The position numbers and the translations under genes are program-made. 64,000 nucleotides of DNA. Origin: Escherichia phage vB_EcoM_SP13. Below are positions 1-63,160 of this stretch, piece after piece (position 1 is the first letter of the stretch; each line of letters begins with the position of its first letter). The stretch is from sequence record OP352608. One strand, written 5' to 3'. Under the pieces are notes generated by a model, which was given only the letters and a program-made list of their open reading frames with translations, was not told the origin of the DNA and searched no databases.

Positions 1-131
1 ATTTTAAAAACATTTATATTAATTTTTTTCATATCCTCATACTTATGTTAATTTATATATTTAACGTATCATCCGTAAGATATAAGTAAAAACAAAGACT
101 TGCGGCAATACGGATGATACGTCATGATACG
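1..131. repeat. AT-rich tract (1-60) followed by a perfect 14-bp inverted repeat ACGTATCATCCGTA, built from the same ATCCGTATC unit as the iteron locus near 16.1 kb
   Basis: Read directly: 64-77 acgtatcatccgta and 109-122 tacggatgatacgt (exact reverse complement); 1-60 is strongly A+T rich. Confidence 0.6.
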
Positions 132-360
132 CTTCAACCAGCCAGCAGCGGCTAAGTCGTTGATTTGCATAACAAGCGGCAAAAGGGATGGATTTCTTTT
201 ATACGTATCAAACAGTACACCACGCACCACGGTCCGTTATCCATTCAGCAATATGATTTGTGTACGTTTATAGCCATAATGAACATCAATCTGCACTTGA
301 ATATAATGTCCATCCATTGTATAATTCACACTATTAATTTGCACTATGGGATTTTGCACT

Positions 361-834
361 ATGAGTCAAGATTATGTAGCGATGCCTGAAGACTTTGAAG
401 ACCCGCGATTCGCAGAGCACAATCAGGCTTTATTCGATGAGTTCATTGACCTTGTTATTCAGGGTCATGACATGCGCGCAGCTTTTGCACTAGTATTTGG
501 AATGGAAGTTGCAACGGATAACTACACTGGCCAGCGAATCCTTTGCACGCAACGCAATCCATACTACAAGATGCGCTTCAAAAAGCGTATGGAAGAGATG
601 CCACTCAAGGATTTGTGGAGCGTAAAAGGTGCAATTCACAATTTGGTTAAGCTTGTTCGTGATCCAGAAGTCGCGGCGTCAGCCAAGCTTAATGCTATTC
701 GTGAACTGAATATCATCTACGGCATCACGATGATTGATGAAAACGGCAATAGTAAAATGGGCCGTTCCATGGACGATTTCTACAAGGATTTTGGAGAGGC
801 GGCCAAAGAAGGTGAGCAATTCTCCCGCCACTAG
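361..834 (+). CDS. hypothetical protein (about 158 aa)
   Basis: ORF 346..834 trimmed to the ATG at 361; an AATTTGCACTAT box ends on the start codon; no recognisable motif. Confidence 0.6.
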   Translation: MSQDYVAMPEDFEDPRFAEHNQALFDEFIDLVIQGHDMRAAFALVFGMEVATDNYTGQRILCTQRNPYYKMRFKKRMEEMPLKDLWSVKGAIHNLVKLVRDPEVAASAKLNAIRELNIIYGITMIDENGNSKMGRSMDDFYKDFGEAAKEGEQFSRH

Positions 835-948
835 CCAATTTGCACTATAAAACGGCCCTAGAACACATTTTCTCCAATTCTAGGGCCATCGGTAATACGA
901 CGGGGAAGGTTACAAACATAAACGCGTTAGAAAGTGTATTATTATAAG

Positions 949-1212
949 TCATCTTTTAGTCACCTTACGTAACAATTTACGACCTTCAACCGTCCAATCG
1001 AACGACTCCACCAGCAGATTCGCACTATAACCTAAGACGATGCGTCCCTTCTCGTTATCGACCCGCCAACAAGTCTCGAATAGCATTCGATTTGCACTAT
1101 TAACTATTGCCGCAACTCGCGTAGGATAAGCGCAATTTGAACTATGGTCGTAAAGGGATAAGGTGCGACCACTTCCGATGGACAACGTAGCGATGAGAAT
1201 GAGCGTATTCAT
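949..1212 (-). CDS. hypothetical small protein (coding status uncertain)
   Basis: 87-aa ORF with GGTGG RBS, but three AATTTGCACTAT-type boxes lie inside it on the opposite strand. Confidence 0.3.
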   Translation of the reverse strand: MNTLILIATLSIGSGRTLSLYDHSSNCAYPTRVAAIVNSANRMLFETCWRVDNEKGRIVLGYSANLLVESFDWTVEGRKLLRKVTKR

Positions 1213-1262
1213 AAGCCACCAATTTGCACTATGAAAAGCGACCCCGAAGGGCCGCCATTCGA

Positions 1263-1889
1263 TTAGATAATCTGGAAGGTATAGGATTTGTTGCCGAACT
1301 CAAAGTTCAAGCGCCCAGCTTCCTTAAGCTTCATGCGGAAGCGAATGTGCTTGCTATCCGGCAAGCCCAGCACGGCGAACGCTACGCGGACCGATTTGAA
1401 CTCGCCTACACCCTCGACCATAACGCCGTTACGGGTGAGACGCTTTTGCGCCACTTCCTTATTATCCCAACTTTTTGCAATACCTTCGCTATTCGAACGG
1501 CGATGGGAAGGAGTTCCATTTTGCACTACGCAATTTGCACTATCGTTTAGACCGCTCTTAACGAAGGCTTCATACTCTTCGTCGGTCATCGCGTCGAGTT
1601 CTTCCTGGGTCGGCTCGGCCTTTTTAACGACCGCACGCGCCTTATGCGTTTTTACATCGCTGGACACTTCCTCGCGCGACTTCGCTTCGGGGATGGGCGA
1701 TTCGTTGGACGGCTCATCGAGCGCGTTTAAGGACTCGATTAACGCGATTACGCGAGTCTCGGCGGTACGGCGGTCCGCAAATTTCTTAATCGGCTTCGAA
1801 CCGGAATTTGCATTATAAAATGCAACGAGGTCGGCGGTCTTAGTTGCGATAACGTCGCCGCTAGTCGAGAAACGATTTAAGCTAACCAT
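1263..1889 (-). CDS. hypothetical protein (208 aa)
   Basis: ORF with AGGAG RBS 7 nt before the ATG; GC-richer codon usage than most of the window; overlapping plus-strand ORFs judged less likely. Confidence 0.55.
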   Translation of the reverse strand: MVSLNRFSTSGDVIATKTADLVAFYNANSGSKPIKKFADRRTAETRVIALIESLNALDEPSNESPIPEAKSREEVSSDVKTHKARAVVKKAEPTQEELDAMTDEEYEAFVKSGLNDSANCVVQNGTPSHRRSNSEGIAKSWDNKEVAQKRLTRNGVMVEGVGEFKSVRVAFAVLGLPDSKHIRFRMKLKEAGRLNFEFGNKSYTFQII

Positions 1890-1969
1890 AATGAACTCCT
1901 ATTTGTTAGGGCGCTAGGCGCGAAAGAATTTTATTAAAGCGCCGCGCACGACGCTCTAAAAATCCTCTC

Positions 1970-2254
1970 TTACGCTTCGACGAGGGAGAAGGTCTCAAAT
2001 TCTTCTTCGCCCATAACGAGTAAGATGTTACCGATTTCGACCGCTTCGAAGAAGTATCCGTTAACGTTTACTTCGAAGGCTTCGCGGTCCGATTCCGGTA
2101 ACGCCGCGTAAAGTTTAAAAGCCTCGGCGACCGTTACCCCACCCGCCTCGATGGTCTGGTCTACGTTCGCGGCGTAGACTTCGGATAAAATTTGTTTTAC
2201 GCCGTAGTTCTCGACGATAGCGTTACGGATGGAAGAAACGTTAAGAATAGCCAT
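1970..2254 (-). CDS. small protein, paralog of the 2889..3179 product
   Basis: AGGAG RBS; shares VY-x-NVD-x-IE and VN-x-NG-F-x-E-IG segments with the 2889..3179 protein; preceded by promoter cassette copy A. Confidence 0.7.
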   Translation of the reverse strand: MAILNVSSIRNAIVENYGVKQILSEVYAANVDQTIEAGGVTVAEAFKLYAALPESDREAFEVNVNGYFFEAVEIGNILLVMGEEEFETFSLVEA

Positions 2255-2322
2255 TTTAAACTCCTAGTTGGGAGAGGCGTTAACGACCTATTCGCTAACT
2301 CATCCCGTCCCGATATGAGTAC

Positions 2323-2350
2323 ATTATAATATAGTGTAGAAAAAAGTAAA
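2323..2350 (-). promoter_or_regulatory. sigma70-like promoter (cassette copy A) for gene 1970..2254
   Basis: On minus strand: -35 TTTACT, 16-nt spacer, -10 TATAAT, then the conserved leader ATATCGGGACGGGATGAGTTAGCGAATAGGTCG shared with copies B and C. Confidence 0.55.
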
Positions 2351-2394
2351 GCACTTTTTCGATAAAAATGCGATAAATTATTTTATCTTTTTTC

Positions 2395-2422
2395 TTTACT
2401 TCTTCGTACACTCGCGTATACT
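2395..2422 (+). promoter_or_regulatory. sigma70-like promoter (cassette copy B) for gene 2479..2781
   Basis: -35 TTTACT (2395-2400), 16-nt spacer containing GTACACT, -10 TATACT (2417-2422), followed by TTGTTTATATCGAGACGGG. Confidence 0.55.
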
Positions 2423-2478
2423 TGTTTATATCGAGACGGGCGATGGCCCTTCCTTCTACTAGCATCGGGAGCTTTATT

Positions 2479-2781
2479 ATGACTACTTTAATCTCTTCCA
2501 TCCTTACTTACGACGAAGACCGTTTAACCGTTCGCTCTCTTATCGCCGCCGTTAACGCCGAACTAGAATCTAGCGCCATTAAGGTCCGCGCGGTTGCCTT
2601 CGTCGGTCTTTCCTTCGACGATATCAAGTACGCCGAACGTAGCGCCATCCGCTTCGCGAAGACCGACGACGAAGCCGTTACCCTTATCGAGACGGTTACT
2701 CCGCGCGGCGAAACGTTAATTATCGTCGAGTATATCGACGTAGAAGGCGATAAGGCTTATAAATATTTTATCGCAAAATAA
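2479..2781 (+). CDS. hypothetical small protein (100 aa)
   Basis: ORF 2422..2781 trimmed to ATG 2479 with GGGAG RBS; no recognisable motif. Confidence 0.65.
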   Translation: MTTLISSILTYDEDRLTVRSLIAAVNAELESSAIKVRAVAFVGLSFDDIKYAERSAIRFAKTDDEAVTLIETVTPRGETLIIVEYIDVEGDKAYKYFIAK

Positions 2782-2792
2782 CGAAAAAGTGC

Positions 2793-2821
2793 TTTACTTC
2801 TTAGTACACTAAGACTATAAT
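2793..2821 (+). promoter_or_regulatory. sigma70-like promoter (cassette copy C) with structured leader for gene 2889..3179
   Basis: -35 TTTACT (2793-2798), 17-nt spacer containing GTACACT, -10 TATAAT (2816-2821); leader 2837-2869 GGGATGAGGTAGCGAATAGGTCGCTACCCTCCC can form a stem-loop. Confidence 0.6.
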
Positions 2822-2888
2822 GTTTTATATCGAGAGGGGATGAGGTAGCGAATAGGTCGCTACCCTCCCGACTAACTAGGAGAATATT

Positions 2889-3179
2889 ATGATCACTTTA
2901 TCCGCTATCCGTGCCGCTCGCGTCGAAACTTCCGAAAACTCTAACGTATTTGGCGAAACCTTAGAGAGCGTTTATCTCTCTAACGTTGACGCGATTATCG
3001 AGTCTATTTATGAGCCGATCAACTTCCTCGACCTTTACAAGTATCGCGATGAGGACATCGTGTCCTACCGCGTAACGATTAACGGCTTCGTTTATACGAT
3101 TACCGAAATCGGCGGCGAATATCTCGCTGTACCGCAACTCGGCGGCGAAGTAACTTACTTTAAAATCGTAAGCCTTTAA
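2889..3179 (+). CDS. small protein, paralog of the 1970..2254 product
   Basis: AGGAGA RBS; paralogy visible in the translation. Confidence 0.75.
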   Translation: MITLSAIRAARVETSENSNVFGETLESVYLSNVDAIIESIYEPINFLDLYKYRDEDIVSYRVTINGFVYTITEIGGEYLAVPQLGGEVTYFKIVSL

Positions 3180-3190
3180 GGAGAAGAAAA

Positions 3191-3400
3191 ATGATTAATA
3201 TGAATAACTCTCTTAACGCGCGCGCCCATCGCACCGCCGTCATCGATATGTTCCGTGAGCTTAAGGACTTATGCGATAATATGAACGCGATGTTATCCAT
3301 CGGCGGCTGGGGATACGAAGAAGAAGTTAAATATGCGGTTATGCGTCGCCGTCGCGATAACGTCCTTGGGCAAATTAAACGCGCCGGATTATTCCTTTAA
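3191..3400 (+). CDS. hypothetical small protein (69 aa)
   Basis: AAGGAGAAG RBS; followed by a terminator. Confidence 0.65.
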   Translation: MINMNNSLNARAHRTAVIDMFRELKDLCDNMNAMLSIGGWGYEEEVKYAVMRRRRDNVLGQIKRAGLFL

Positions 3401-3426
3401 TTATAATCAACCACCGTTACTAATAG

Positions 3427-3451
3427 GCCGCGCTTAGTCGCGGCTTTTCTT
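3427..3451 (+). terminator. rho-independent terminator
   Basis: GCCGCG-cttagt-CGCGGC hairpin followed by TTTTCTT. Confidence 0.7.
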
Positions 3452-3570
3452 CGTCCCTATCTCGGTGCGCTCCTACGCGAAAACTCCTTTATCCTTCCCT
3501 TCGTCGTCGCATAATCTTCGTCGATATGCGCCTTAGTTCGCATAACAGGTATTACGTTAAATGGAGAACA

Positions 3571-3832
3571 TCGCGTAAGTCCTTGTTTTATATAGACACC
3601 TATATCGGACCGTTAGGGCGGGTCGCGTAAGTCGTTGTTTTATAAAGGCGCAAAACTTTCCCTTCGTTCCGAACTAAAACGAGGAATATGCCGACCCTTC
3701 GTCCGAAAATAGTACGCATGCGAAATTACATGCATCTAGAATAATCCCCACAGATATTATCCTACACGCAATCATTCGCTTTCGAATCATTATGCTTCAT
3801 ATTATTATGCGTCGAATCATTCGCTTTCGAAT
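3571..3832. repeat. Direct repeats in a roughly 700-bp non-coding stretch
   Basis: TCGCGTAAGTC(C/G)TTGTTTTATA at 3571-3592 and 3623-3644; AATCATTCGCTTTCGAAT at 3770-3787 and 3815-3832; no convincing ORF or tRNA cloverleaf found by eye. Confidence 0.5.
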
Positions 3833-4115: not shown

Positions 4116-4496
4116 CTATTCACTCTTATGGGCATCACCAAATCCATCAGCAATCTGGCTGATCAACGACTCAATGGACACAGTTTTACCAATTGATCGA
4201 GCGGTTATGGCGAGCATATTATCAATCAAACCATGATTGACACAATACTCTGGAGATTTAGAATCATCTTCAGAACAACCAAAAAGCTGGTCGCGCAGAC
4301 TTTCAAGAGAACGCTCAATATTTTCCAACTTCTCTTCTAAATCGGATTGGCGACGTAAAACCCATGTTAAGTCTCGGTTGCCGACTTCCAACCCATCAGA
4401 ATAGCAAGGTGGAGCGTCAATTTTGATGCTGGAACCAAAAGCAGTGCCGCTGCCTTTAGTATAAGTATGGCTCATAGAATCATTTTTATTTGACAT
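4116..4496 (-). CDS. hypothetical protein (about 126 aa)
   Basis: ORF 4116..4562 trimmed to the ATG with AAAGGT RBS. Confidence 0.55.
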   Translation of the reverse strand: MSNKNDSMSHTYTKGSGTAFGSSIKIDAPPCYSDGLEVGNRDLTWVLRRQSDLEEKLENIERSLESLRDQLFGCSEDDSKSPEYCVNHGLIDNMLAITARSIGKTVSIESLISQIADGFGDAHKSE

Positions 4497-4593
4497 ATCA
4501 TTACCTTTAATATTTGGGTGATTAACAATAACTATAATAAAGCCGCATAGCGCGGCATTCAAATCGATTTATTAATTGTGACGATTGGATTCA

Positions 4594-4788
4594 TCAATCG
4601 ATACCAACTGAGCCGATGTGCTGAAAGAACTCTGAATAAACTTCCTTCCAGTACTTACGCGCTGCTTTCTGGGCTTGTCCTTTGCGCTTGAAGCTTTTGC
4701 CTTGAAAGATGAAACGGTCGCTTGTCGCGCGATACTCCACCACACCTTCCAGCCATTGTAAGAATGCTACTGATTCATTTTTATTCAT
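4594..4788 (-). CDS. hypothetical small basic protein (64 aa)
   Basis: GAGGT RBS. Confidence 0.55.
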   Translation of the reverse strand: MNKNESVAFLQWLEGVVEYRATSDRFIFQGKSFKRKGQAQKAARKYWKEVYSEFFQHIGSVGID

Positions 4789-4795
4789 TTCAACC

Positions 4796-5194
4796 TCAAT
4801 ATTTTAATAAGAAAGCACCCAACCAACTTTCCTCAACCTCGCGGCCAGTAGCCACACGGTCGGTCTTGGCTATGGGTCTGGATTCGCCGCAGGGCAACCC
4901 GTCTTGTAGTTGTGTACTATTGCCAATTCTCACCAGAACCTTTCCATCAGGGTCGATATAAGCGCGACAACCCATGATTTCGAGTCGTTGTAGACACTGG
5001 CGAATCGTTTTCAGCTTCTCACCGGACCGGATAGAGCGCGGTCGCGACCGCTGACCGTTCTTATTTACTGTACGCTTGAAGACCGGAATATCATTGGTGC
5101 GTTGCGGCTTGGGTCGGTAGTAGGCTTCTTCGCCAGGAGTCGCACCTGGCGTCAATTCGCGCTTGAGCGCCTTTTCAATATCAATGATCATAAT
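4796..5194 (-). CDS. hypothetical basic protein, possibly nucleic-acid binding
   Basis: ORF trimmed to MIIDIEK start, which overlaps the stop of the upstream peptide gene (TAATG); Arg/Lys-rich centre. Confidence 0.5.
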   Translation of the reverse strand: MMIIDIEKALKRELTPGATPGEEAYYRPKPQRTNDIPVFKRTVNKNGQRSRPRSIRSGEKLKTIRQCLQRLEIMGCRAYIDPDGKVLVRIGNSTQLQDGLPCGESRPIAKTDRVATGREVEESWLGAFLLKY

Positions 5195-5292
5195 TATGCC
5201 GCAGCAGCGTGAATTATTGCGTAAACAATTCCTAACAGGGCGACAACGCAAACAGTGCCCCAAAATGCAAAGCGTCGTGCCTCTTTATCCAT
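5194..5292 (-). CDS. 32-aa single-pass membrane peptide
   Basis: MDKEARRFAFWGTVCVVALLGIVYAIIHAAAA; start overlaps the stop of gene 5285..5572 and stop overlaps the start of gene 4796..5194 (translational coupling). Confidence 0.4.
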   Translation of the reverse strand: MDKEARRFAFWGTVCVVALLGIVYAIIHAAAA

Positions 5293-5572
5293 TGTCCACC
5301 GCCCCAATATCCATGAAATTAAAAACCAATTTCGCCATTTCATCTTGTGAAATGACATTATAGTGCTTAGGCAAATCGCTTTCTGATAATACCTTCTGGG
5401 CTTCTTCTTTTGTCTCAAAGAGAGGGATGCACCAGTTTACTGCTTCACCAGATTCATTACTGTCTACTTGCTTTAAAAAGACCAAGCGGTTATCTTCAGG
5501 ATCAATGCCGCAGATGACGTATTTTGGCAATGCTTTTGCTTTTTGAGTCTTATCAATATCTTCAAATTTCAT
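5285..5572 (-). CDS. hypothetical protein (95 aa)
   Basis: ORF trimmed to MKFEDID with GAGGTG RBS. Confidence 0.6.
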   Translation of the reverse strand: MKFEDIDKTQKAKALPKYVICGIDPEDNRLVFLKQVDSNESGEAVNWCIPLFETKEEAQKVLSESDLPKHYNVISQDEMAKLVFNFMDIGAVDNG

Positions 5573-5653
5573 AATACACCTCACTTGTTAACGTATAATG
5601 AGTATAACTTAATAGCGCATAAAGTAAAGGCGCTTTTCAGCGCCTTGAGTGAA

Positions 5654-7963
5654 TTATTTTGCTGATTTCAGCGCGGCTATCTCTGCCTTGAGTTCACCTA
5701 TCTGATCCATGAGTGCAAGAATAGCCTCGTGGTGCAATGCCGCTGCCACTCCGTAAGTGTCGACTGATTTGACATCCTTGACCACGGTCCCATCAGCCAG
5801 TTCCATATCACCTGAAACAGAAACGGCTTCTGGGAAATCAACCTCAACATCTTGAGCCACGAATCCAAAACCTACTTTCGCGCCGTCAGTTTTCAATCGC
5901 CATGACACGCCATTAATCCTTTTCATCTTGGTCAATGGGTCTTGAATCTTGACAATCTCATCCTTGATTCTGACGTCTGAAGAAGTACCCCAACCGCCAG
6001 CGCAAACAGCATTACCTGCTTGCAGGAATTGGAAATACTTGTTGGTGCCTACACCGCCAGCAGTAGTGGTCATTATGGTCACATCGCCATTACGCTCAGA
6101 ATATACCCGACCATACGTTGCTGTGTTGGCACTGTTCTTAAAATCGATGAACGATTGGTTGTTGGTGTTTCCAATGAACGTCGCTTGACCGCCGCGAGTT
6201 ATCAACTGGCCTTTTGCATCAACGTTCCCAGAGCTGGTGATCAAGTTATTTGGCACAAGCAAGTTGCCGTTGTCGACAAAATCGAATGCCTGGCTGGCGG
6301 CAGTCGTCAAATTGGTAACGGTCAATCGCATGTAATAAGCGCCACCGATAACAGCGCGAATGCGCATGCGACCTTCAGCCTCAACAGCAGTCCCCACTCG
6401 ATACTCCGACATGACGCTGCCGCCGTCAGCGGTCGTGCCTGGACCTGGCATTGCCGTATCGCCGTTTATAACAGACCATTGCGTATTCGCCGCTGTGAAT
6501 CCACCGGATGCACGAATCACCCAAACGCCTGAAAAGTTGCGCGGCAATACTTCATCTGTTGCAAGGTTGTTACGACCGTAAGCTGGGCTTGAGTTAGAAG
6601 CTCTTAGCGCAACGCTTCCCAAAGAGTTCGCACCAGAACTTAAAAGCGAAACACCTCTTACATATCGCGGAATGGTGAATCCTTCTCCATTGATGAATGC
6701 GCCGCCAGCACCTGCGACAACCGTTCCTGATGCTGGTTCACTTGCAGGGCCGGACCCGTGGAAGTTGATGTTGCCAGTGATGTTTGGCAGGAAGGATTCC
6801 ATTATCATTCCGTCATTTGACGAGTTGCCGCCATCGCCACGGGCAAAAAGTGCACGAACACTTCCTGTCTGAACGCCGTTACGGTCTGGAACACGGAATG
6901 TTGTTGTTCCGTTGCCTAAAGAATACTTTCCGCGCTTCAGCGGGTCAGCCAACCAATCTGCATCAGCAATAGGCGTAAGCATTTGCGCATAAGCCCAAAG
7001 CTCAGGCCAGTCTGCACGGTTAAGCAATTGTCCGTCGGCAACAACTTCATACGACTGAATATAGGCGCGACTGTCGCGCAGGTGAAAGTCACCAACGCCA
7101 TAGTTCATTACGCCGTTCATGCTTGGGCCAACGGTGCCAGTATTTACTAAGTTCTCAACCCAACGCTTCGTCGCGGCATCATAATCATTGACGGGGTCGC
7201 CAGCCAGTGGTGTTGAGCCTTGTGGACGAATATTCAACCATGCTTGCGCATTGTCTGCTGATCCTGTGCCGCCCATGGAAGTTGGAACGATGCTCTGATC
7301 AGCAACAGGGCCAAATCCAAAGGCATCTTTCATTCCCTGAATAGTCGTTTGACCTGTGCCGCCGTTTGCAATTGGAATTGTGCTTTGTGAACTATAAATT
7401 TGCGCCCAAGGCGACCATGAAGATGTTTCAGCATTGTACCTTCTTTGGTACAAGTTATTTGAGTTGAATGTGGTGTATCTTTGAATGCAACTTTCCAAAG
7501 ATATGGCAGTCTGCAGGACTTCCAATATCCCAGCTTCCAAGGCTACTGGATAGTTGAGGGATGTCTGCGCAGCAGCATTTGAATATTGGTAATATTGCCC
7601 AAACCAAGTTCCAGTCAAAGAGTTCAGATTTATCCCCGACGGCAAAAGTCCAAAATTCCTGACAGTATTGGTCAAAGATGCGGCAGTTGTTCGAATGGAA
7701 AGCATGTCGCCTGCCGCCCATGCGCGCGCTGCAGTTCCTTCCTGTGCACGCTGCACAGTCAGGACGTTCCCAACCACGGCTGTTACAGTGATGATTTCAA
7801 ATTGGAGGCCTGTTGCAGCGTCGACGATTGTCGCCACTACACGCTCGTTTGCACCCAAGGTCGGAAAGCCCGACCCTGAGCGGATTGTGATTGTGGTGTC
7901 TGAAGTCGTCGCTGGCTGAGCGAGCGCGACCTCAAAGTTGTTTTTGAATATTAGCCTTGGCAT
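5654..7963 (-). CDS. tail fibre/tailspike protein with C-terminal self-cleaving intramolecular chaperone domain (peptidase S74-like)
   Basis: N-terminal TITIRSGSGF...VTAVVGNVLTVQRAQEGT fibre-anchor-like segment; Gly/Ser/Thr-rich repetitive body; C-terminal GGWGTSSDVRIKDEI ... FGFVAQDVE ... LKAEIAALK pattern as in endosialidase-type chaperone domains; CGAGGA RBS. Confidence 0.75.
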   Translation of the reverse strand: MPRLIFKNNFEVALAQPATTSDTTITIRSGSGFPTLGANERVVATIVDAATGLQFEIITVTAVVGNVLTVQRAQEGTAARAWAAGDMLSIRTTAASLTNTVRNFGLLPSGINLNSLTGTWFGQYYQYSNAAAQTSLNYPVALEAGILEVLQTAISLESCIQRYTTFNSNNLYQRRYNAETSSWSPWAQIYSSQSTIPIANGGTGQTTIQGMKDAFGFGPVADQSIVPTSMGGTGSADNAQAWLNIRPQGSTPLAGDPVNDYDAATKRWVENLVNTGTVGPSMNGVMNYGVGDFHLRDSRAYIQSYEVVADGQLLNRADWPELWAYAQMLTPIADADWLADPLKRGKYSLGNGTTTFRVPDRNGVQTGSVRALFARGDGGNSSNDGMIMESFLPNITGNINFHGSGPASEPASGTVVAGAGGAFINGEGFTIPRYVRGVSLLSSGANSLGSVALRASNSSPAYGRNNLATDEVLPRNFSGVWVIRASGGFTAANTQWSVINGDTAMPGPGTTADGGSVMSEYRVGTAVEAEGRMRIRAVIGGAYYMRLTVTNLTTAASQAFDFVDNGNLLVPNNLITSSGNVDAKGQLITRGGQATFIGNTNNQSFIDFKNSANTATYGRVYSERNGDVTIMTTTAGGVGTNKYFQFLQAGNAVCAGGWGTSSDVRIKDEIVKIQDPLTKMKRINGVSWRLKTDGAKVGFGFVAQDVEVDFPEAVSVSGDMELADGTVVKDVKSVDTYGVAAALHHEAILALMDQIGELKAEIAALKSAK

Positions 7964-8001
7964 TTTACGGTCCTCGTTTTGTCGACAACCGTATTATAAC
8001 C

Positions 8002-8343
8002 TTAATTTCTTTTGAGAGGAATATGACGGTGGCTGCCATTATTTGGTTTAATAATGAGCATAAAAACGATTAGAAAGATGATGGCTGATATACTTAATTC
8101 AATCAGCGCGGCTTGAGATATAGATTGATCTTCGTGATACTGCTTTTGCATTTCTGCTTTCTTCTGAGCGCAAACTTCAGGTGATATGTAATCGCCTTTT
8201 GAGTTGCCATAATAAATTTCGCCGTTTTCAGAAATCAGTCTGCCGCAAATATCCGTTTCAGCCTTTGCACTTGACATCATAATAACGGTGCCGATAATAG
8301 CGGCGATAGTCCAGATTAACAGTTGTGATAAAGTGTTGTTCAT
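8002..8343 (-). CDS. membrane or exported protein (signal-peptide-like N-terminus and C-terminal transmembrane helix)
   Basis: ORF trimmed to MNNTLSQ with AAGAGG RBS; hydrophobic LLIWTIAAIIGTVIMMSSAKA and ISAIIFLIVFMLII segments. Confidence 0.55.
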   Translation of the reverse strand: MNNTLSQLLIWTIAAIIGTVIMMSSAKAETDICGRLISENGEIYYGNSKGDYISPEVCAQKKAEMQKQYHEDQSISQAALIELSISAIIFLIVFMLIIKPNNGSHRHIPLKRN

Positions 8344-8539
8344 GATAACCTCTTTAAATTCCCTTCCCATATCGGGAAGGGTGATAATTATTTTACGCGA
8401 AAGAATAGGCGCGTGCCACACAGCGAGTCCCAACGGCCTTCACCATCCCATACCGACCCAACGCCAGCGGTGATGACACCAGCAGAATTGGCGGCATTGG
8501 CCCAGGCGAGTCGTTTCAGCTTCCAACTACACCAACGAT

Positions 8540-8773
8540 TCACAGTTCATCTCCAGATTGCAGAACAAGTCCCGCATAGAGGATTGCCAAGGCCAAAGGT
8601 GCACCACCACCAGCCTCTCTATTCTCTTTGATTTGAAGAGTATCCTTAAGGAATTGCAGCTGAACGTTGAATTCACTTTCAATTCCAAGCACTCTAGCCA
8701 ATTCTTTTACAGAATCTGCATATGCCTTGTCTAGCACTTCTTTTGGTACTGTTAAGGTTAATTCATTTGCCAT
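8540..8773 (-). CDS. hypothetical small protein
   Basis: ATG overlapping the upstream stop; GGAGTGG RBS. Confidence 0.5.
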   Translation of the reverse strand: MANELTLTVPKEVLDKAYADSVKELARVLGIESEFNVQLQFLKDTLQIKENREAGGGAPLALAILYAGLVLQSGDEL

Positions 8774-8984
8774 TTTCTTTCCACTCCACAAATGTGTTGC
8801 CGCTTGTTTCTCTGTTTAGCAGGTATCTGCCGCGCATCCCATGAAGGCTGAACTCAACCGTCGATGGATTAGATTTTGAAAGCCATATAGGCTGCCCGTC
8901 GAATGGACCGCCTACGCATGTATATTTCGCTTTTGGCTCACTCCTTTTGGGCCGTTTTGCCCGCTCTTTGATTGATAGTCTCAT
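8763..8984 (-). CDS. hypothetical small basic protein
   Basis: ATG overlaps the stop of gene 8984..9199 (ATGA). Confidence 0.5.
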   Translation of the reverse strand: MRLSIKERAKRPKRSEPKAKYTCVGGPFDGQPIWLSKSNPSTVEFSLHGMRGRYLLNRETSGNTFVEWKENGK

Positions 8985-9199
8985 CAGTCTTCACCTTGAG
9001 ATTCCAGACAAGTAAGGACAAGCCAAGTCATCGGAAGAATCAAAACCAGAGAAATGAGGGACCAGATAGACCAGCACAGGATGACAGACTTGAATGTGTG
9101 AACGTCGCCAAACGCAGCAGTAAAACAGAATCCCATTACAAATGCAATAGCGGTGGAATGGTTGTCTATGGCTTTGATGGCACGGTCGATGAGTTTCAT
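8984..9199 (-). CDS. small membrane protein with holin-like topology
   Basis: GGAGGT RBS; 71 aa with two or three hydrophobic helices; no adjacent lysin, so a holin role is speculative. Confidence 0.5.
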   Translation of the reverse strand: MKLIDRAIKAIDNHSTAIAFVMGFCFTAAFGDVHTFKSVILCWSIWSLISLVLILPMTWLVLTCLESQGED

Positions 9200-9348
9200 A
9201 TTACCTCCGGTTTTGAGTTAATATGATTATAACGCAGAGTCTCAGAAAGGCAAACTTTTTGTGAATTTTAATCAAAAAAAATGGCCAGAAAAAAATCTGG
9301 CCGAAAGATCACCCTTTATCCACTACTAAGCTGGAATCATAATTTTAC

Positions 9349-9378
9349 TTGATATAGCTTGTACAAGCAAACTATAAT
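9349..9378 (+). promoter_or_regulatory. promoter-like element upstream of the terminase gene
   Basis: -35 TTGATA, 18-nt spacer, -10 TATAAT abutting the ATG at 9379, which would favour the in-frame ATG at 9412 as the real start. Confidence 0.4.
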
Positions 9379-10839
9379 ATGAATAAAATATTAACACATA
9401 ATTGGAAATTCATGTACCAGTTGAATCCTGCTTTAAAAGAAGTCTGGAAGACAAAAGCGCGATACAAAGTAATATACGGCGGTCGTGCATCTTCCAAATC
9501 GCACGATGCCGCTGGTTTTGCTATTTATTTGGCGGCAAACTTCAAATTAAAATTCCTTTGCGTTCGACAATTCCAGAACAAAATTTCTGAATCTGTATAT
9601 ACTCTATTAAAAGACAAAATAGAGATTTCTGATTTCAAAGATGAGTTCAATTTATTAAAGAACTCTATTGAACATAAAAGAACTAAATCTGAATTTCTAT
9701 TTTACGGTATCGCACGTAACGTTGATGAAATTAAATCAACAGAAGGTGTTGACGTCCTTTGGCTGGAAGAAGCGCACGCGCTTACTGAAGAACAGTGGGA
9801 CATTATTGAGCCGACAATCCGTAAAGAAGGGTCCGAAATATGGATCATCTTTAACCCCGATGAAGAGGCCGATTTTGTCTACCAAAACTTTGTTATGCGA
9901 CCGCCGAAGAATGCCATTGTTAAAAAGATAAACTGGCAAGACAATCCATTTTTGTCGCAAACGATGCTGGACGTTATTGCAGGCATGTACGAGCGCGACC
10001 CGAAAAAGGCAGAGCACGTTTATGGCGGCGTGCCGAAGACTGGCGGCGATAAATCTGTAATCAACCGCGCATTCGTTAAGGCCGCGCTTAATCTCCACAA
10101 ACACCCTACGCTGGGATGGAGTTTGTCAGGGTCTAACCGTATAGGCTTTGACGTAGCGGACGATGGCGACGACCTTAACGCCACTGCATTCGTTACAGGA
10201 AACGTATTGCGCGGCATCAAGACATGGGAAGGTCTGGAAGATGAATTGTTAAAATCGGCAAGCGGAGTTTGGAAAGATGCGCTTACATTTGGCGCTTCTA
10301 TAACTTATGACGCCATCGGTGTCGGCGCTTTTGCTGGTTCAAAATTTGATGAACTGAACGAGTATGCAATACATGAAAATCCATCATTTCCAAGAATCGA
10401 ATTTAATGCGTTCAATGCGCAAGGGTCTGTTGATGATCCTGATGACGTTTTTCTTGAATTACCACACGTTGAAATACTCAATAAAGACCATTTCGCAAAC
10501 ATAAAAGCGCAAAAGTGGACTGAAATTGCAGAGAGATTCAGAAAGACATACGAATATGCAACTGGGCAAGCCGTATATCCGACTGATGAGTTGATTTCAA
10601 TCGACACCGATGGCATACCAGAACTTGGAATTCCAGCTTGGACTACTGAAGAGATTGAGACGTTTCTTTTTGAGATGTCAGCGCCGCGCAAAGATACGTC
10701 TGTTCTTGGCAAGTTCAAAGTTGAATCTAAAAAGGATATGGCAAAGCGTGGAGTCAAATCACCTAACAAAGCGGACGCGGCAATCATGGCATTAATGAAA
10801 CCAATCGTTGCAGCATCCGGCTTCTTCTCTAACCTTTAA
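9379..10839 (+). CDS. terminase large subunit
   Basis: N-terminal deviant P-loop RYKVIYGGRASSKSH typical of large terminases, acidic nuclease-type C-terminal half, position upstream of the portal; alternative start at 9412. Confidence 0.85.
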   Translation: MNKILTHNWKFMYQLNPALKEVWKTKARYKVIYGGRASSKSHDAAGFAIYLAANFKLKFLCVRQFQNKISESVYTLLKDKIEISDFKDEFNLLKNSIEHKRTKSEFLFYGIARNVDEIKSTEGVDVLWLEEAHALTEEQWDIIEPTIRKEGSEIWIIFNPDEEADFVYQNFVMRPPKNAIVKKINWQDNPFLSQTMLDVIAGMYERDPKKAEHVYGGVPKTGGDKSVINRAFVKAALNLHKHPTLGWSLSGSNRIGFDVADDGDDLNATAFVTGNVLRGIKTWEGLEDELLKSASGVWKDALTFGASITYDAIGVGAFAGSKFDELNEYAIHENPSFPRIEFNAFNAQGSVDDPDDVFLELPHVEILNKDHFANIKAQKWTEIAERFRKTYEYATGQAVYPTDELISIDTDGIPELGIPAWTTEEIETFLFEMSAPRKDTSVLGKFKVESKKDMAKRGVKSPNKADAAIMALMKPIVAASGFFSNL

Positions 10840-10842
10840 CAA

Positions 10843-11082
10843 TCAAAGCATTCCGTGCTGAAGGTCTAGTTTTCTTGCAGCAAATGACCTGGCACGGAAT
10901 CGCTTACCCGCCCTTACTGCCTGCCGAATCTTCTTTTGCATACACTTACGGTCAAAATCGTTGCGGTCAACGGCTTCGAGTAAATCCCGACGCAAAGCAC
11001 CTAGTGTCGCCTTTTCGGATAATTCTACGCCCAGCGCGGCTGCAACGTCTTTCAAAACATCGAGTTCGGTTAACGTTCTCAT
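10843..11082 (-). CDS. hypothetical small protein with basic C-terminus
   Basis: 79-aa ORF on the opposite strand between terminase and portal. Confidence 0.45.
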   Translation of the reverse strand: MRTLTELDVLKDVAAALGVELSEKATLGALRRDLLEAVDRNDFDRKCMQKKIRQAVRAGKRFRARSFAARKLDLQHGML

Positions 11083-11495
11083 TTGATAATCCCCTTGATG
11101 TCTGATTCTGCCATAAAGATTGGAGTGCCGCCGCCAGGAACAATCGAGCGCGTTACTTTGTCGAACATATCGTTTTCTTCAACTTGAATACGATAAAATT
11201 TATTCTTGGATGAAGATGGGCACAATTCCATAAATTTACCAATGCCGCGAACGCATTCATCTTCAAAGTATACTGTTTCACCTTGAATGGATTCGATGTT
11301 TTCAACCGGATACACCTTGCGACCTAAAAGCCATTCATCCATGGTCGCCTGCAACACGCTTCTCGCATCCAAAATCCAAGGGTCAACTGTGGCACCTTCA
11401 TATCGCGCAGCAGTGGCTTTTGCCAGCTCTTCATATTCGCATACGTTTACTACTTCGCCTTGATGAAGGACGACAAATACAATTGTTGTGCTCAT
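11079..11495 (-). CDS. hypothetical protein (138 aa)
   Basis: ORF on the opposite strand between terminase and portal; 4-nt overlap with the downstream gene. Confidence 0.5.
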   Translation of the reverse strand: MSTTIVFVVLHQGEVVNVCEYEELAKATAARYEGATVDPWILDARSVLQATMDEWLLGRKVYPVENIESIQGETVYFEDECVRGIGKFMELCPSSSKNKFYRIQVEENDMFDKVTRSIVPGGGTPIFMAESDIKGIIK

Positions 11496-11590
11496 TTCAA
11501 TCTCCTTTCGTTTGGTTAACTAAAATATAACTCAAAATGATACAAAAGCAAAATATTTTATGAACTATTTATGATTACTATACATATCAT

Positions 11591-11619
11591 TTGCTTACAA
11601 ACACATGAATATTTATAAT
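11591..11619 (+). promoter_or_regulatory. sigma70-like promoter upstream of the portal gene
   Basis: -35 TTGCTT, 17-nt spacer, -10 TATAAT in an AT-rich divergent intergenic region. Confidence 0.5.
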
Positions 11620-11657
11620 ATAGATTGATTCCCTTTCACTGTCAGGTGGCGTTAACA

Positions 11658-14033
11658 ATGAAAATTCTTGGCATAAAACTCTGGGAGAAGACGCGACCAG
11701 AAGCCGAACCAGCGGAGATGCCGCCAGGCGACCCATTGGCACCGTTTGAACGCCTTGAAAGGCGCGGCAGCGGTCAACGCTGGGAAAAGACTGAAAGCAA
11801 TCGACCGACCTTTAAAACGGTTGATGACTTCCCTTTATATGAGCCTGATATTAACGGGGACGGTGTTGCAATCATCAAAGGTCGCTCAGTAGATTCAGCA
11901 ACCGTATCCAAAAAAGTTATGGATAATGCCTTAAAGAACATCAGTTCAGAAGGGCAGGTGAATCCATACACAGTGCCTATTCAGTTGCAAAACTGGTACT
12001 TATCGCAATCATTTATCGGATATCAAGCTTGCGCCATCATCGCGCAGCACTGGCTAGTGAACAAGGCTTGTTCCATGGTAGGCCGCGATGCGGTCCGTAA
12101 AGGCTGGGAAGTCAAATCCAGTTCTGAGTCGGAATTGTCAGTACAGGCCAGCGAACGCTTAAAGCAAATTGATAAAGAATTTAACATCAAAGAGCACTTA
12201 GTTGAAGCCGAACGATTCAAGAATATTTTTGGCATCCGCGTCATCATATTTGATGTGCGCAGTGATGACCCAGAATATTATAGCAAACCTTTTAACATCG
12301 ATGGTGTGACAAAAGGGTCTTATAAGGGAATCATTCAGGTTGACCCTTATTGGATGATGCCATTCTTGACGTCTGAAAACACTGCAGACCCTGCGTCACA
12401 GCATTTCTATGATCCAGAATACTGGGTGATCAGCGGACAGCGTTATCATCGCAGCCACCTAATCATCTTGCGCAACGATGAGCCAGCTGATATTCTCAAG
12501 CCGACTTATATCTACGGCGGCATTCCTCTGACTCAGCAGATTTATGAACGTATCTATGCCGCTGAACGTACCGCTAACGAAGCGCCATTGCTGGCGATGT
12601 CTAAGCGTACAACCACGCTTCGGACCGACGTTGACAAGGCGATTGCCAATGAGCGGTCGTTTGCCGAACGTCTGATGATGTGGATTAAGTACCGCGACAA
12701 CTATGCAGTCAAAGTGCTTGGTCAGAAAGAAGAGATGGACCAGTTCGACATCAACTTGTCAGACTTCGACAGCATCATCATGAACCAGTACCAGCTGGTG
12801 GCCGCAATCGCAAAAGTTCCGTCGACAAAACTGTTAGGGACGTCACCTAAAGGCTTTAACGCCACTGGTGAGTTCGAAATGGTCAGCTATCACGAAGAAT
12901 TGGAGACTTGTCAACAGCACGATTTGACGAAGATTCTTGACCGCCACTATAAAATCCTTTTGAAGTCTGAAGGCGTGGAAGTCGACGTTAAAGTGGCATG
13001 GGAGCCAGTTGGTTCACTTACTGCTACTCAGCTTGCAGAGATTAACGACAAACGAGCGAATACTGGCAAGACTCTCATTGATGCTGGCGTAATCTCCCCT
13101 GATGAAGAGCGCGACCGCATCAAGGACGACAAAAACAGCGGCTACAACCGTTTGCCGGAAGATGCAGCAGAAGAAACCCCAGGGATGTCTCCAGAGAATA
13201 TGGCACTGCTTGGCAAGTCTGCTGGTGAAGTTCTGCAAGGCAAGGCCGATATTGAACAGGCCAAAGCTGATGTTGTCAAGATGGGCGGCCAGTTCTATAG
13301 CGAGACTGGTATTATGCCGGAAGGTGCCGCGCGTGGTGAGTTGGCGGAAAACCCTGACAGGGCACCAGTTGAGATTAACATGGATGATACCGATGACGAA
13401 TCAAGCCATCACGTTGATGTCCTAACGCAACTGAAAGAAGGTCTGGAGGGTATTGCTGACTATTACCTTAAAGAAGGTCAGGACGTGGATTTTGACCCTC
13501 AAAAAGATGCAAGGTCGGTGCAACCGTCTACGCTTCCAAGCGTAAAAGGAAATGTCGTGAACTTGCGACACAATGTAGGGAAGATGGATGCTGCATCGCT
13601 GCCTAAGATGAAGTTGCACGGGATGATTCTTGGTATTGAGAATCCTCGCAACAGCATTCGCAGGGGTAACAGCCTTGATGGTGAATGGGCAGTTAAGATG
13701 CCGCACCATTACGGATTTATCAAAGGCACCAAGGGCGCTGATGGTGATGAAGTCGACTGCTTTGTTGGACCAAACATGAAGTCGCCTAAAGTATTCATCA
13801 TTAACCAAAATGATAATTATTCTGGCGAATTTGATGAACACAAGTGTATGCTTGGATTTGATTCAGCAGAAGAAGCGAAAGAAGCTTATCAGGCGTCATT
13901 TGGTAACGGTTGGAACGGATTTGACTCAATCCACGAATTGGATGTAAACTCATTCAAGGAGTGGTTGAAGGGTGATTGCTCTCAAGCATATGGAGCACTC
14001 AACAATCCTACTAATTCACCGAAGCAAGGTTGA
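11658..14033 (+). CDS. portal protein (with extended C-terminal region)
   Basis: ORF trimmed to ATG 11658 after AGGTGG RBS; size and position between terminase and head-morphogenesis gene; no portal motif verified. Confidence 0.65.
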   Translation: MKILGIKLWEKTRPEAEPAEMPPGDPLAPFERLERRGSGQRWEKTESNRPTFKTVDDFPLYEPDINGDGVAIIKGRSVDSATVSKKVMDNALKNISSEGQVNPYTVPIQLQNWYLSQSFIGYQACAIIAQHWLVNKACSMVGRDAVRKGWEVKSSSESELSVQASERLKQIDKEFNIKEHLVEAERFKNIFGIRVIIFDVRSDDPEYYSKPFNIDGVTKGSYKGIIQVDPYWMMPFLTSENTADPASQHFYDPEYWVISGQRYHRSHLIILRNDEPADILKPTYIYGGIPLTQQIYERIYAAERTANEAPLLAMSKRTTTLRTDVDKAIANERSFAERLMMWIKYRDNYAVKVLGQKEEMDQFDINLSDFDSIIMNQYQLVAAIAKVPSTKLLGTSPKGFNATGEFEMVSYHEELETCQQHDLTKILDRHYKILLKSEGVEVDVKVAWEPVGSLTATQLAEINDKRANTGKTLIDAGVISPDEERDRIKDDKNSGYNRLPEDAAEETPGMSPENMALLGKSAGEVLQGKADIEQAKADVVKMGGQFYSETGIMPEGAARGELAENPDRAPVEINMDDTDDESSHHVDVLTQLKEGLEGIADYYLKEGQDVDFDPQKDARSVQPSTLPSVKGNVVNLRHNVGKMDAASLPKMKLHGMILGIENPRNSIRRGNSLDGEWAVKMPHHYGFIKGTKGADGDEVDCFVGPNMKSPKVFIINQNDNYSGEFDEHKCMLGFDSAEEAKEAYQASFGNGWNGFDSIHELDVNSFKEWLKGDCSQAYGALNNPTNSPKQG

Positions 14034-14034
14034 T

Positions 14035-14886
14035 ATGGCTTTTAAAGCTTCGAAAAAACGTGAACGCCGCTCACCCGATAGAATCGGGCGCGGCAGTCCG
14101 ATAATCCCATCCAACGCAATCGCGATGGCCTATCGTCGTGAGATGAAAGGTCTTTGCTATGCGATGATTGACGACTATCAAGAAGGAATTGCTGAGTGGC
14201 TTGAAAAGAAGCAGGTGAAAAAATTCTTTGCGCAAGACTCTGCTGATTCAACTTTTCAAACCTTGATGAAGCGACTGCAACTGAAATGGGCAAAAGCTTT
14301 CGCCCGTGTCGGGTCAAAGATTGCCGCAGATTTCATCAAGTCAGTTGAAAAGGGTGCCACTTCTGCTACATTTGCAAGTCTTAAATCTGCAGGAATAGAA
14401 GCGCCAAAAGCCACATATAATAAATTCGTTGAGAACACTCTTAAAACAAGCGAGACGTTCAACACGACTTTAGTGACTAAGGTTGGCGAGGATATTCACA
14501 ACAGGGTGTACGAAGCGGTGATGCTTTCGCTGACTTCGCCAGACCCAGCGCAACAAGGCACGTCCGGTATTCAGGCGGCATTAAGGAATGTAAAACACTT
14601 CTCTGCAAAGCGCGTAGACCTTATTGCAAAAGACCAAACGAGCAAACTTTATTGCGTATTAAGTGATGAAAGGATGCGACAGAATGGAGTCGAGGAATTT
14701 GAGTGGGCGCATTCAGGAGCAGGCAAAGAGCCGCGAATATCGCATGAGCATGTCGATGGAATGAGATTCAAGCTTGATGACAAACGCTTATGGGAAGTAG
14801 GTGGAGAACTTAAGTTCAAAAAGGGTGACATCGGTCCTCCTGGATGGGCGATACACTGCAAGTGCAGGAAAATACCAATTATCTGA
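14035..14886 (+). CDS. head morphogenesis protein (Mu F / SPP1 gp7-like minor head protein)
   Basis: C-terminal HEHVDG ... HCKCR pattern as in Mu F-like proteins; immediately after the portal. Confidence 0.65.
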   Translation: MAFKASKKRERRSPDRIGRGSPIIPSNAIAMAYRREMKGLCYAMIDDYQEGIAEWLEKKQVKKFFAQDSADSTFQTLMKRLQLKWAKAFARVGSKIAADFIKSVEKGATSATFASLKSAGIEAPKATYNKFVENTLKTSETFNTTLVTKVGEDIHNRVYEAVMLSLTSPDPAQQGTSGIQAALRNVKHFSAKRVDLIAKDQTSKLYCVLSDERMRQNGVEEFEWAHSGAGKEPRISHEHVDGMRFKLDDKRLWEVGGELKFKKGDIGPPGWAIHCKCRKIPII

Positions 14887-14893
14887 GGTCATT

Positions 14894-15814: not shown

Positions 15815-15824
15815 AGAGGAAGTT

Positions 15825-15962
15825 ATGCAAAAGATTATTCAGTCACGTTATGTTAAAGTGCGAAATATTAATTGCAACTCTTTGCTTTCTTGGAAATGGG
15901 CTGTTTATGACTCGATGTTGATTGGCGTTTTAGTGGCAGGAGTGCTATTTAATATTCACTGA
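15825..15962 (+). CDS. 45-aa peptide with C-terminal hydrophobic helix
   Basis: Not in the ORF track (under 60 aa); strong AAGAGGA RBS 5 nt before the ATG; MLIGVLVAGVLF segment. Confidence 0.4.
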   Translation: MQKIIQSRYVKVRNINCNSLLSWKWAVYDSMLIGVLVAGVLFNIH

Positions 15963-16004
15963 ATTCATCGGCAAAGGATTGCCGCGAGTTTTATACGTAT
16001 AATG

Positions 16005-16270
16005 ACGTATCATCCGTATCAAGTAAGTTGTTGTTTTCAAAAGAATCTTACGGATGATACGGATGATACGCGTTGCCGCCGTACTATATAGGAATTCAAA
16101 TAAATTAATTTAAAATTATATATCTAATTTAATTTTATTTTTTTATAAACTCTTATATATATGAAAAGTATCCGTATCATCCGTATCATCCGTAGCACAC
16201 CAGTGATAGCGCGGCTTATACACCGATACGGATAAAAATACGCCTCATTTTATCCGTATCATCCGTATCA
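16005..16270. repeat. Iteron cluster (9-bp unit ATCCGTATC, direct and inverted) flanking an 85-bp AT-rich tract; candidate origin of replication or other protein-binding locus
   Basis: 16005-16020 direct; 16049-16072 inverted 2.5 units; 16081-16165 almost pure A+T; 16169-16194 direct 2.8 units; 16224-16233 inverted; 16251-16270 direct 2.2 units. Confidence 0.7.
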
Positions 16271-16385
16271 CACTAATAAAGGCGCGGCTATATCGGTTGT
16301 TATACATATTCAAACCATAATTATTGTTTGCCTAAGTTTTTTTCATTAGATATAATACACAATACTTATTTGAGGGTGGATGCGA

Positions 16386-63076: not shown

Positions 63077-63160
63077 ATATCAAAAAGGTGAGCTAAATGC
63101 TTGCCTTTTCTTTTATCAATACTTATACTCTTTTCATCAAGACGAAAAGTGAGGTGAATT

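Follow-up and report, generated by a model that had tools for sequence, protein, structure and literature searches.

A cluster of three repeated promoter-leader cassettes is found near the start of a 64,000-nucleotide (nt) stretch of Escherichia phage vB_EcoM_SP13 (OP352608), which is referred to here, at its full length, as the window. The cassettes, designated A, B and C, are probably sigma-70 immediate-early promoters, each followed by a self-contained leader that stabilizes or insulates the mRNA, and would drive genes that take part in an arms race with the host. The element is of a known kind, a strong early promoter for the host polymerase with a structured leader, in a new form. The host sigma-70 RNA polymerase would read all three strong promoters, most likely immediately after infection. 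Promoters A and B lie back to back, such that A would drive a leftward unit (gpA, a 208-amino-acid (aa) protein and an 87-aa protein), and B would, together with C, drive a rightward unit (gpB, gpC, gpD and a terminator).

Three predicted promoters of one class

The three cassettes follow the pattern CTTTACTT-N-TACACT-N-TATAAT/TATACT-N7-ATCG(A/G)GA(G/C)GGG, with one copy on the minus strand and two on the plus strand (Table 1) and no further copy in the window. Exact matches to CTTTACTTNTTNNTACACT are found at 2333-2351 (minus), 2394-2412 (plus) and 2792-2810 (plus). Allowing up to three mismatches adds one match, a poor one, and at the same threshold shuffled controls gave a mean of 0.59 matches, with 0 of 100 shuffles reaching four. 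A two-block scan tuned to this promoter class returned three sites and no others, as compared to 0.05 in shuffled sequence, and a promoter scan of the window returned eight matches, among them all three cassettes.

Each cassette has TTTACT as its -35 hexamer, followed after 16 bp (A and B) or 17 bp (C) by a -10 hexamer that is TATAAT in A and C and TATACT in B. A and C match 10 of the 12 sigma-70 consensus positions, with a perfect TATAAT, and B matches nine. A AAAAAGTG tract lies directly 5' of the -35 element in A and C. Downstream of the -10 element, ATATCGAGA(G/C)GGG is exact in B and C, and A carries ATATCGGGACGGG, with one mismatch; TAGCGAATAGGTCG is found in A and C and nowhere else. 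Cassettes A and C can be aligned across the entire leader to the start codon, and the similarity of B to them ends after the promoter and ATATCGAGACGGG.

On these sequence features, the three elements look like autonomous sigma-70 promoters. The first-pass annotation had proposed three copies of a promoter-plus-leader module, which is borne out by the exact matches and the shuffle control, and had viewed the module as an autonomous expression cassette, which fits both the promoter-like elements and the structured leader common to A and C. All three of the sites that it located stand, with copy A corrected to the promoter and leader extents given in Table 1.

Between the divergent promoters A and B, at 2369-2383, is the sequence GCGATAAATTATTT. 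It appears to resemble the high-affinity H-NS motif, TCGATAAATT.

Table 1. Cassettes, genes and other features of the cluster, in window coordinates.
Feature	Position	Strand	Description
Promoter A	2323..2360	-	GAAAAAGTG A-tract; -35 at 2350-2345; 16-bp spacer with CTACACT; -10 at 2328-2323
Promoter B	2386..2422	+	-35 at 2395-2400; spacer with GTACACT; -10 TATACT at 2417-2422; T-rich upstream, no A-tract
Promoter C	2783..2821	+	GAAAAAGTG; -35 at 2793-2798; 17-bp spacer with GTACACT; -10 at 2816-2821
Leader A	2255..2314	-	predicted start A at 2314 (ATCGGGACGGG); hairpin 2270-2311; free AGGAG; start codon 2254
Leader B	2430..2478	+	predicted start A at 2430 (ATCGAGACGGG); hairpin 2435-2452; GGGAG ribosome-binding site
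Leader C	2829..2888	+	predicted start A at 2829 (ATCGAGAGGG); hairpin 2833-2873; free AGGAG 2878-2882
gpA	1970..2254	-	94 aa, isoelectric point (pI) 4.05; gpC paralog; AlphaFold2 (AF2) pLDDT 90, no known fold
208-aa protein	1263..1889	-	phrog_4730, function unknown; second gene of leftward unit
87-aa open reading frame (ORF)	949..1212	-	last gene of leftward unit
gpB	2479..2781	+	100 aa, pI 4.7; no detectable sequence relation to gpA/gpC
gpC	2889..3179	+	96 aa, pI 4.2; gpA paralog
gpD	3191..3400	+	69 aa, basic; phrog_10377 ("transcriptional regulator")
Terminator-like hairpin and T-run	3425..3456	+	end of rightward unit
Compositional island	1400..3700	both	CA/TG low (observed/expected 0.16-0.46); CG and TA raised; depletion strongest beside promoters

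Position in the phage genome

The stretch from 900 to 3800 matches Escherichia phage F13 at 100% identity and a further 27 Wifcevirus records, which are E. coli and Shigella myoviruses with genomes of 67-72 kb, at 92-97%. By this sequence comparison, the window is assigned to Wifcevirus, a group of E. coli myoviruses. The records of phages Mansfield and WFC begin at the physical left end of the genome, and their coordinates coincide with those of the window. A direct terminal repeat is annotated at 1-3673 of the Mansfield record, from a PhageTerm prediction, and terminal repeats of ~3.7 kb are described for WFC and WFH (PMC6563267). The correspondence in sequence places the promoter cluster inside a direct terminal repeat of ~3.7 kb, and therefore two sets of cassettes would be present in each virion genome.

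Two direct repeat pairs, 3571-3595/3623-3647 (TCGCGTAAGTC(C/G)TTGTTTTATA(T/A)AG, 52 bp apart) and 3660-3681/3695-3716 (CCCTTCGT(T)CCGAA...ACG, 35 bp apart), lie near the end of the Mansfield terminal repeat (3673) and may be linked to end formation.

The infection cycle of Wifceviruses is reported to be unusually short. No RNA polymerase gene is found in the annotated 50 kb of the Wifcevirus Bas99. In SPO1 and T5 as well, small early genes with strong promoters for the host polymerase are found in a long terminal repeat, namely the terminal redundancy of SPO1 and the first-step-transfer region of T5.

The leader and its hairpin

The transcript would begin at the A of ATCG, and a stable 5'-proximal hairpin would form within its first ~45 nt, with an unpaired Shine-Dalgarno sequence behind it. 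In leader C, a perfect 8-bp upper stem (2844-2851/2857-2864) sits on a bulged lower stem of five pairs, with a fold energy of -20.1 kcal/mol (z = -3.3). The stem-loop that had been predicted upstream of the ribosome-binding site of copy C is recovered, with eight perfect pairs plus five more in place of the claimed 12-bp stem. Leader A adopts the same fold, with an upper stem of GUUAGCGA/UCGUUAAC that includes one G.U pair. The A and C hairpins comprise 13-14 pairs and the B hairpin six or seven. The sequence of the B hairpin differs between phages, with GGGC-GAUG-GCCC in the window, GAGAGGC...GCCUCU in Mansfield and GGGAG-GCGUU-CUCCC in ECO71P1.

A covariation analysis of the type suggested in the first-pass annotation supports the A/C hairpin. 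When leaders A and C are compared with their variants in other genomes, which provide five distinct stems, two-sided changes or changes via G.U are seen in three of the eight pairs of the upper stem (G-C/U-A, U-A/A-U and G-C/G.U/A-U). The cells of the upper stem are paired in 95% of cases, as compared to 20-52% if the partner is slid by one to three columns. These pair counts come from an alignment of the stem only, given that a full-leader MAFFT alignment misplaced a gap and was unusable for counting. The apical loop, AAUAG(G), is invariant in the A and C leaders. The G.U pairs and the two-sided changes suggest a folded transcript, as opposed to a palindrome to which a protein binds.

The Shine-Dalgarno sequence and the start codon are unpaired in every minimum-free-energy fold, and no alternative pairing of the leaders is apparent in the folds. 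No U-tract follows the stems, which run into CCCUCCCGAC in C and GCCUCUCCC in A, and an Rfam search of 1800-3800 (E <= 10) gave no match in the cassettes. The post-transcriptional control suggested in the first-pass annotation is not supported by these four results. An intrinsic terminator or attenuator was considered and judged unlikely, given that the stems lack a U-run and the cassette hairpins are not among the terminator-like sites.

The hairpin may instead act as a self-contained leader, either by protecting the 5' end of the mRNA or by keeping the ribosome-binding site from pairing with the coding sequence. With such a leader, different genes could be plugged in behind one cassette.

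Likeness to the T7 A1 promoter

The closest relative of the cassettes in sequence appears to be the T7 A1 promoter. The decamer ATCGAGAGGG, which in copy C starts 7 nt downstream of the -10 element, is identical to +1 to +10 of T7 A1; B differs from it at one position (ATCGAGACGG) and A at two (ATCGGGACGG). In the T7 record the A1 start is annotated at 498, the A of atcgagagggacacggcgaatagcc, and the predicted starts in Table 1 were placed after this example. T7 A1 and copy C also share GCGAATAG a few nt past the start and an AAAAAG-GT tract 5' of the -35 element, and the T7 A1 leader too has a predicted 5' hairpin, in this case with three tiers. As with the Wifcevirus cassettes, the T7 A1-A3 promoters, which are E. 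coli sigma-70 promoters ahead of ocr, are strong, are clustered near a genome end and precede a small, very acidic first gene.

The two systems differ in several respects. The T7 A1 hexamers are TTGACT/GATACT, unlike the TTTACT/TATAAT of the Wifcevirus cassettes, and the T7 A1-A3 promoters point in a single direction and lie outside a long terminal repeat. The T7 early mRNA is processed by RNase III, which is counted as a further difference, and the T7 protein Ocr is all-helical and shows no similarity to gpA. The blocks in common with T7 A1 (10 nt, 8 nt and the A-tract) are all short, and a BLAST search with the cassette does not reach T7. Outside T7 A1 templates, nothing relevant on the ATCGAGAGGG motif was found in the searchable literature.

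Cassettes in other phages

A sensitive BLAST search with cassette C recovered all Wifcevirus records, many jumbo Asteriusvirus phages and Pantoea phage PA1. The Asteriusvirus cassette, AAAAAGT(A/G)CTT...TATAAT-GTTTTA(C/T)-ATCGAGAGGGG, matches cassette C in up to 25 of 25 positions over TATAATGTTTTATATCGAGAGGGGA and at up to 14 places per genome. In Asteriusvirus vB_Ec-M-J, the matches are in an annotated direct terminal repeat of 21.5 kb that is dense with small ORFs. As in Wifcevirus, the Asteriusvirus cassette lies in a direct terminal repeat and is followed by a 5' hairpin, a ribosome-binding site and a small ORF. A 12-kb Asteriusvirus stretch has 11 matches to TAWAAT-N7-ATCGAGAGGG with up to three mismatches, where 0.26 are expected; outside the Wifcevirus and Asteriusvirus clusters, the number of matches in a scan for this pattern is about at chance level. 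Among the distinct Asteriusvirus leaders behind TATAAT-N7-AT(C/A/G)..., 35 of 37 fold with z < -2 (mean z = -4.1). They contain hairpins of 32 different sequences, with G.U in 25 of 321 pairs. The Asteriusvirus cassettes differ from those of Wifcevirus in that the -35 element is CTTGCA, that there are dozens of copies in one orientation, that the hairpins are short (6-13 bp) and that CA/TG is not depleted. Searches with gpA and gpC by tblastn gave matches from Wifcevirus records only, with no similarity to an Asteriusvirus protein.

The Asteriusvirus terminal repeat is, in its own right, made up of dozens of near-identical units, in each of which a promoter and a 5' hairpin are followed by a ribosome-binding site and a single small ORF. 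Such arrays, with abundant hairpin covariation, are seen in vB_Ec-M-J (4495-16527 of the record), in OQ718158 and in IMG/VR contigs. No description of these promoter arrays was found in searchable papers.

Three promoters of the Wifcevirus type, AAAGTGCTTTACTT...TACAC...TATAAT...TCGAAA, with a TATCGA... start, are found in PA1, a Kylevirus, and are arranged as in the window, with one leftward and two rightward. A metagenomic contig with the gene for a third gpA/gpC family member also carries a divergent pair of such promoters. When IMG/VR was scanned for the promoter pattern, 63 stretches were returned, and of these, those in Wifcevirus contigs are real; the others have normal composition and lack the -10/ATCG context and were set aside. 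More distant relatives with the 208-aa protein, including IMG/VR contigs of ~68-72 kb, have neither this promoter class nor the compositional island described below.

Weaker promoter-like sequences are found elsewhere in the window. At 63094-63160 (plus strand), a promoter-like GCTTGCC...TTATACT-N7-TCAAGACGAAAAG, a weak match, lies ahead of an ORF, and its start region resembles, also weakly, the ATCGAAACGAA starts of the Kylevirus promoters. A short tandem repeat, three copies of ATCCGTATC at ~16170-16200, lies 3' of a weak match to the promoter pattern at 16133.

Genes behind the cassettes

Cassettes A and C precede a divergent pair of 94-96-aa paralogs, as the first-pass annotation had proposed. 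The two proteins, gpA and gpC, are distant paralogs, with 28% identity (E 1e-5), and a profile built from them recovers both as well as the third member, a 103-aa protein from the metagenomic contig. The AF2 model of gpA also matches the predicted structure of the WFH protein at the gpC position (E 4.6e-6). A search of 1.8 billion proteins with the profile returned family members only, besides weak summed matches to Big_13 Ig-like repeats, which are not taken as homology. No similarity in sequence or fold to the anti-restriction DNA mimics Ocr and ArdA was found. The proteins gpA, gpB and gpC and a 104-aa protein of WFC are all strongly acidic, with pI values of 4.0-4.7.

The genes behind the cassettes are far less constant than the cassettes. 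The gpA gene is present in 11 of 28 related records, and three gene arrangements are found behind cassette A across genomes. The gpA slot is occupied in WFC by the unrelated acidic 104-aa protein, and in ECML-117 and RCIP0319 no small gene follows cassette A, which directly abuts the 208-aa gene. Likewise, gpD is absent from Mansfield and several other genomes. When the window is set against WFC, identity is 97-99% in the cassettes, as compared to 50% in the gpA slot and 71% in gpC. In the WFC/WFH group gpC is 62% identical and cassette C 98%. The leaders of A and C are themselves about 80% identical in nucleotide sequence. The gene replacements abut the cassettes. By sequence comparison, the cassettes thus appear as conserved frames around genes that are rapidly replaced or diversifying, as expected for arms-race genes, and they may double as conserved boundaries for gene replacement.

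In the F13 record (3384-3790, equivalent to 2590-2888 of the window), 303 bp with the 3' part of gpB and cassette C are duplicated in tandem, resulting in a fourth promoter copy. The duplication is not present in the window, its junction lies elsewhere than at the cassettes, and it may be genuine or have arisen in assembly.

The gpA/gpC family and the WFC 104-aa protein would be fast-evolving early proteins, probably directed against host defenses or toward host takeover. It is plausible, from sequence and genome context, that these first-expressed acidic proteins are reasonable anti-defense or host-takeover candidates, as had been proposed. The candidacy follows from the location in the terminal repeat, the acidity (pI 4.0-4.2), the ORFan status and the replacement or divergence of the genes between genomes that are 95-99% identical. 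It also follows from the finding that Wifceviruses resist every tested restriction-modification system but EcoP1I, with no known genome protection (10.1101/2024.09.12.612763). The same preprint on the BASEL collection describes inhibition of Wifceviruses by cryptic prophages of K-12.

Weighing the explanations

The closest described concept is the promoter early stem-loop (PeSL) of T4-type phages. In the PeSL, a repeated sigma-70 early promoter with a stem-loop and a Shine-Dalgarno sequence likewise precedes small ORFans where the genome is most plastic, and its sequence is better conserved than that of the genes under its control (PMC2839356, PMC4122927). Were the Wifcevirus cassettes equivalent, the stem-loop would terminate or attenuate incoming transcription and the repeats would serve mainly as recombination sites for gene shuffling, in line with the modular exchange that PeSLs mediate (PMC2839356) and with the replaced or diverged gene slots behind the conserved cassettes A and C. 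However, the PeSL stem-loop is a terminator placed within or 5' of the promoter, whereas the Wifcevirus stem-loop occupies +5 to +45 of its own predicted transcript, which it would also stop, and has no U-tract. It shows, unlike the PeSL, covariation of the RNA type, and there are only three copies. In addition, there is no gene upstream of copy A, neither minicircles nor rearrangements bounded by the repeats are seen for the Wifcevirus cassettes, and the sole duplication seen, that of 303 bp in F13, is not bounded by the cassette repeats. Such an equivalence is therefore unlikely.

The hairpin could also be a processing site for RNase III or a similar enzyme, which would separate the gpB and gpC messages and create defined, stable 5' ends. 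In T7, hairpins are the sites at which early transcripts from A1-A3 are cut, cassette C is flanked by two genes that belong to a single transcription unit, and the combination of a bulged lower stem with a perfect upper stem would be compatible with such a site. Nonetheless, 13-14 pairs fall short of the ~20 bp of typical RNase III substrates, the hairpins of copy B and Asteriusvirus reach only 6-10 bp, and copy A has no upstream gene from which to be separated, such that we consider processing to have a small chance of being the correct explanation. A similarly small chance is given to a leader that works as a regulatory switch or that is bound by a repressor of translation, which is what post-transcriptional control would entail. 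The far greater conservation of the leaders than of the coding sequences of the paralogs (about 80% of nt as compared to 28% of aa) and the invariant apical loop would be expected of a regulatory RNA, but both the Shine-Dalgarno sequence and the start codon stay free in all folds, an alternative fold is not evident, and the leader, which has no Rfam match, spans only ~60 nt; in addition, related promoters carry unrelated hairpins or none. Least probable, and very unlikely, is a DNA operator in which the inverted repeat at +16 to +36 (GGTAGCGA-N5-TCGCTACC) is bound by a dimeric regulator, such as the co-transcribed gpD with its match to the annotated transcription regulator phrog_10377, to shut off or autoregulate early transcription: copy C does have, just 3' of the start, two perfectly palindromic 8-bp arms set 5 bp apart, but the stem of copy A is kept via a G.U pair that is a mismatch in DNA, compensatory changes occur on both arms among paralogs and strains, the copy B hairpins are unrelated across phages, Mansfield and other genomes keep the hairpin without gpD, and the Asteriusvirus leaders have 32 different hairpin sequences.

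Several points weigh against immediate-early promoters with a stabilizing or insulating leader as well. No transcript data for any Wifcevirus were found in the searchable literature, and gpA, gpC and gpB have no significant match in sequence searches of Pfam, PHROGs and the PDB. The likeness to T7 A1 could reflect not common descent but convergence toward a promoter that is optimal in E. coli. The Wifcevirus covariation sample is small, at five distinct stems, and 11 of 500 shuffles match the observed score. The hairpin begins at nt 4-9 of the Wifcevirus leaders and nt 1-7 of the Asteriusvirus leaders, counted from the predicted 5' end, and 3-8 nt are thereby left unpaired at the 5' end of the hairpin leaders. 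Such a free end may exceed what is compatible with classic 5'-end protection, as known from the ompA 5' hairpin and the requirements of RppH. Finally, the PA1 leaders are short, and two of the three have no hairpin; because these two are unstructured, the hairpin is common but not obligatory for the promoter class. Immediate-early promoters with a self-contained leader still provide the most probable account of the three cassettes.

A CA/TG-depleted island

The cassettes lie in an island (Table 1) in which the strand-symmetric observed/expected ratio of CA/TG is 0.46 overall, as compared to 1.19 in the rest of the genome. In the equivalent stretch of Mansfield, the ratio falls to 0.16-0.31 in 500-bp windows. 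Within the island, the ratio for CG is about 2.0 and that for TA about 1.2, CAG/CTG is 12-fold rarer than elsewhere in the genome (0.08 of the frequency there), CATG is absent and CTAG is seven-fold enriched. The depletion extends over the sense strand of genes in both orientations and over intergenic DNA, and on both arms becomes weaker farther from the promoters. The proteins encoded in the island are almost devoid of His, Gln, Cys and Trp. The adjoining gene at 361-834, the small terminase subunit according to the Mansfield annotation, is also inside the direct terminal repeat, and its composition is normal, unlike that of the island.

An island of this type also surrounds the homologous promoters in PA1, Mansfield, WFC, ECML-117, the metagenomic relative and one further IMG/VR genome, with coordinates in relatives of L100:3000-4500, L105:2500-4100 (the metagenomic relative) and L112:500-2000. 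It is found neither in the Asteriusvirus repeat nor in the distant relatives with the 208-aa protein. In the metagenomic relative, 1150 bp that cover two complete genes and the start of a third contain only seven CA/TG: three in start ATGs, one in the TACAC promoter element, two in a CTGCAA -35-like element and one upstream of the first promoter. The proteins encoded in this stretch have no His, Gln, Cys, Trp or internal Met. Nothing relevant on CA/TG depletion in phages was found in the searchable literature.

We tentatively suggest that an early module, with the promoter cluster at its core, is actively kept clear of CA/TG on both strands, either because its DNA or RNA has been selected to escape some agent or to keep NTG starts unique, although we consider this somewhat doubtful. 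Such an agent, of host or phage origin, could be a nuclease, primase or modifying enzyme whose targets are very short sites containing CA/TG. Alternatively, NTG start codons could be kept unique to true gene starts. A local, context-specific mutational process is a further candidate.

Significance

The analysis extends beyond the first-pass annotation in the location of the cluster in the terminal repeat, the identity to the T7 A1 start, the Asteriusvirus and Kylevirus cassettes, the hairpin of copy B and the CA/TG-purged composition. The probable immediate-early promoters of the Wifceviruses, their predicted starts and the fast-evolving acidic proteins that would be expressed first are now pinned down. 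One promoter-leader design with the T7 A1 start sequence appears to be common to three unrelated coliphage groups, suggesting a compact, portable expression module. The CA/TG-purged module, rather than the cassette, is the part that deserves follow-up: it is a clean, testable anomaly, and may signal an unrecognized constraint on the first DNA that a phage expresses.

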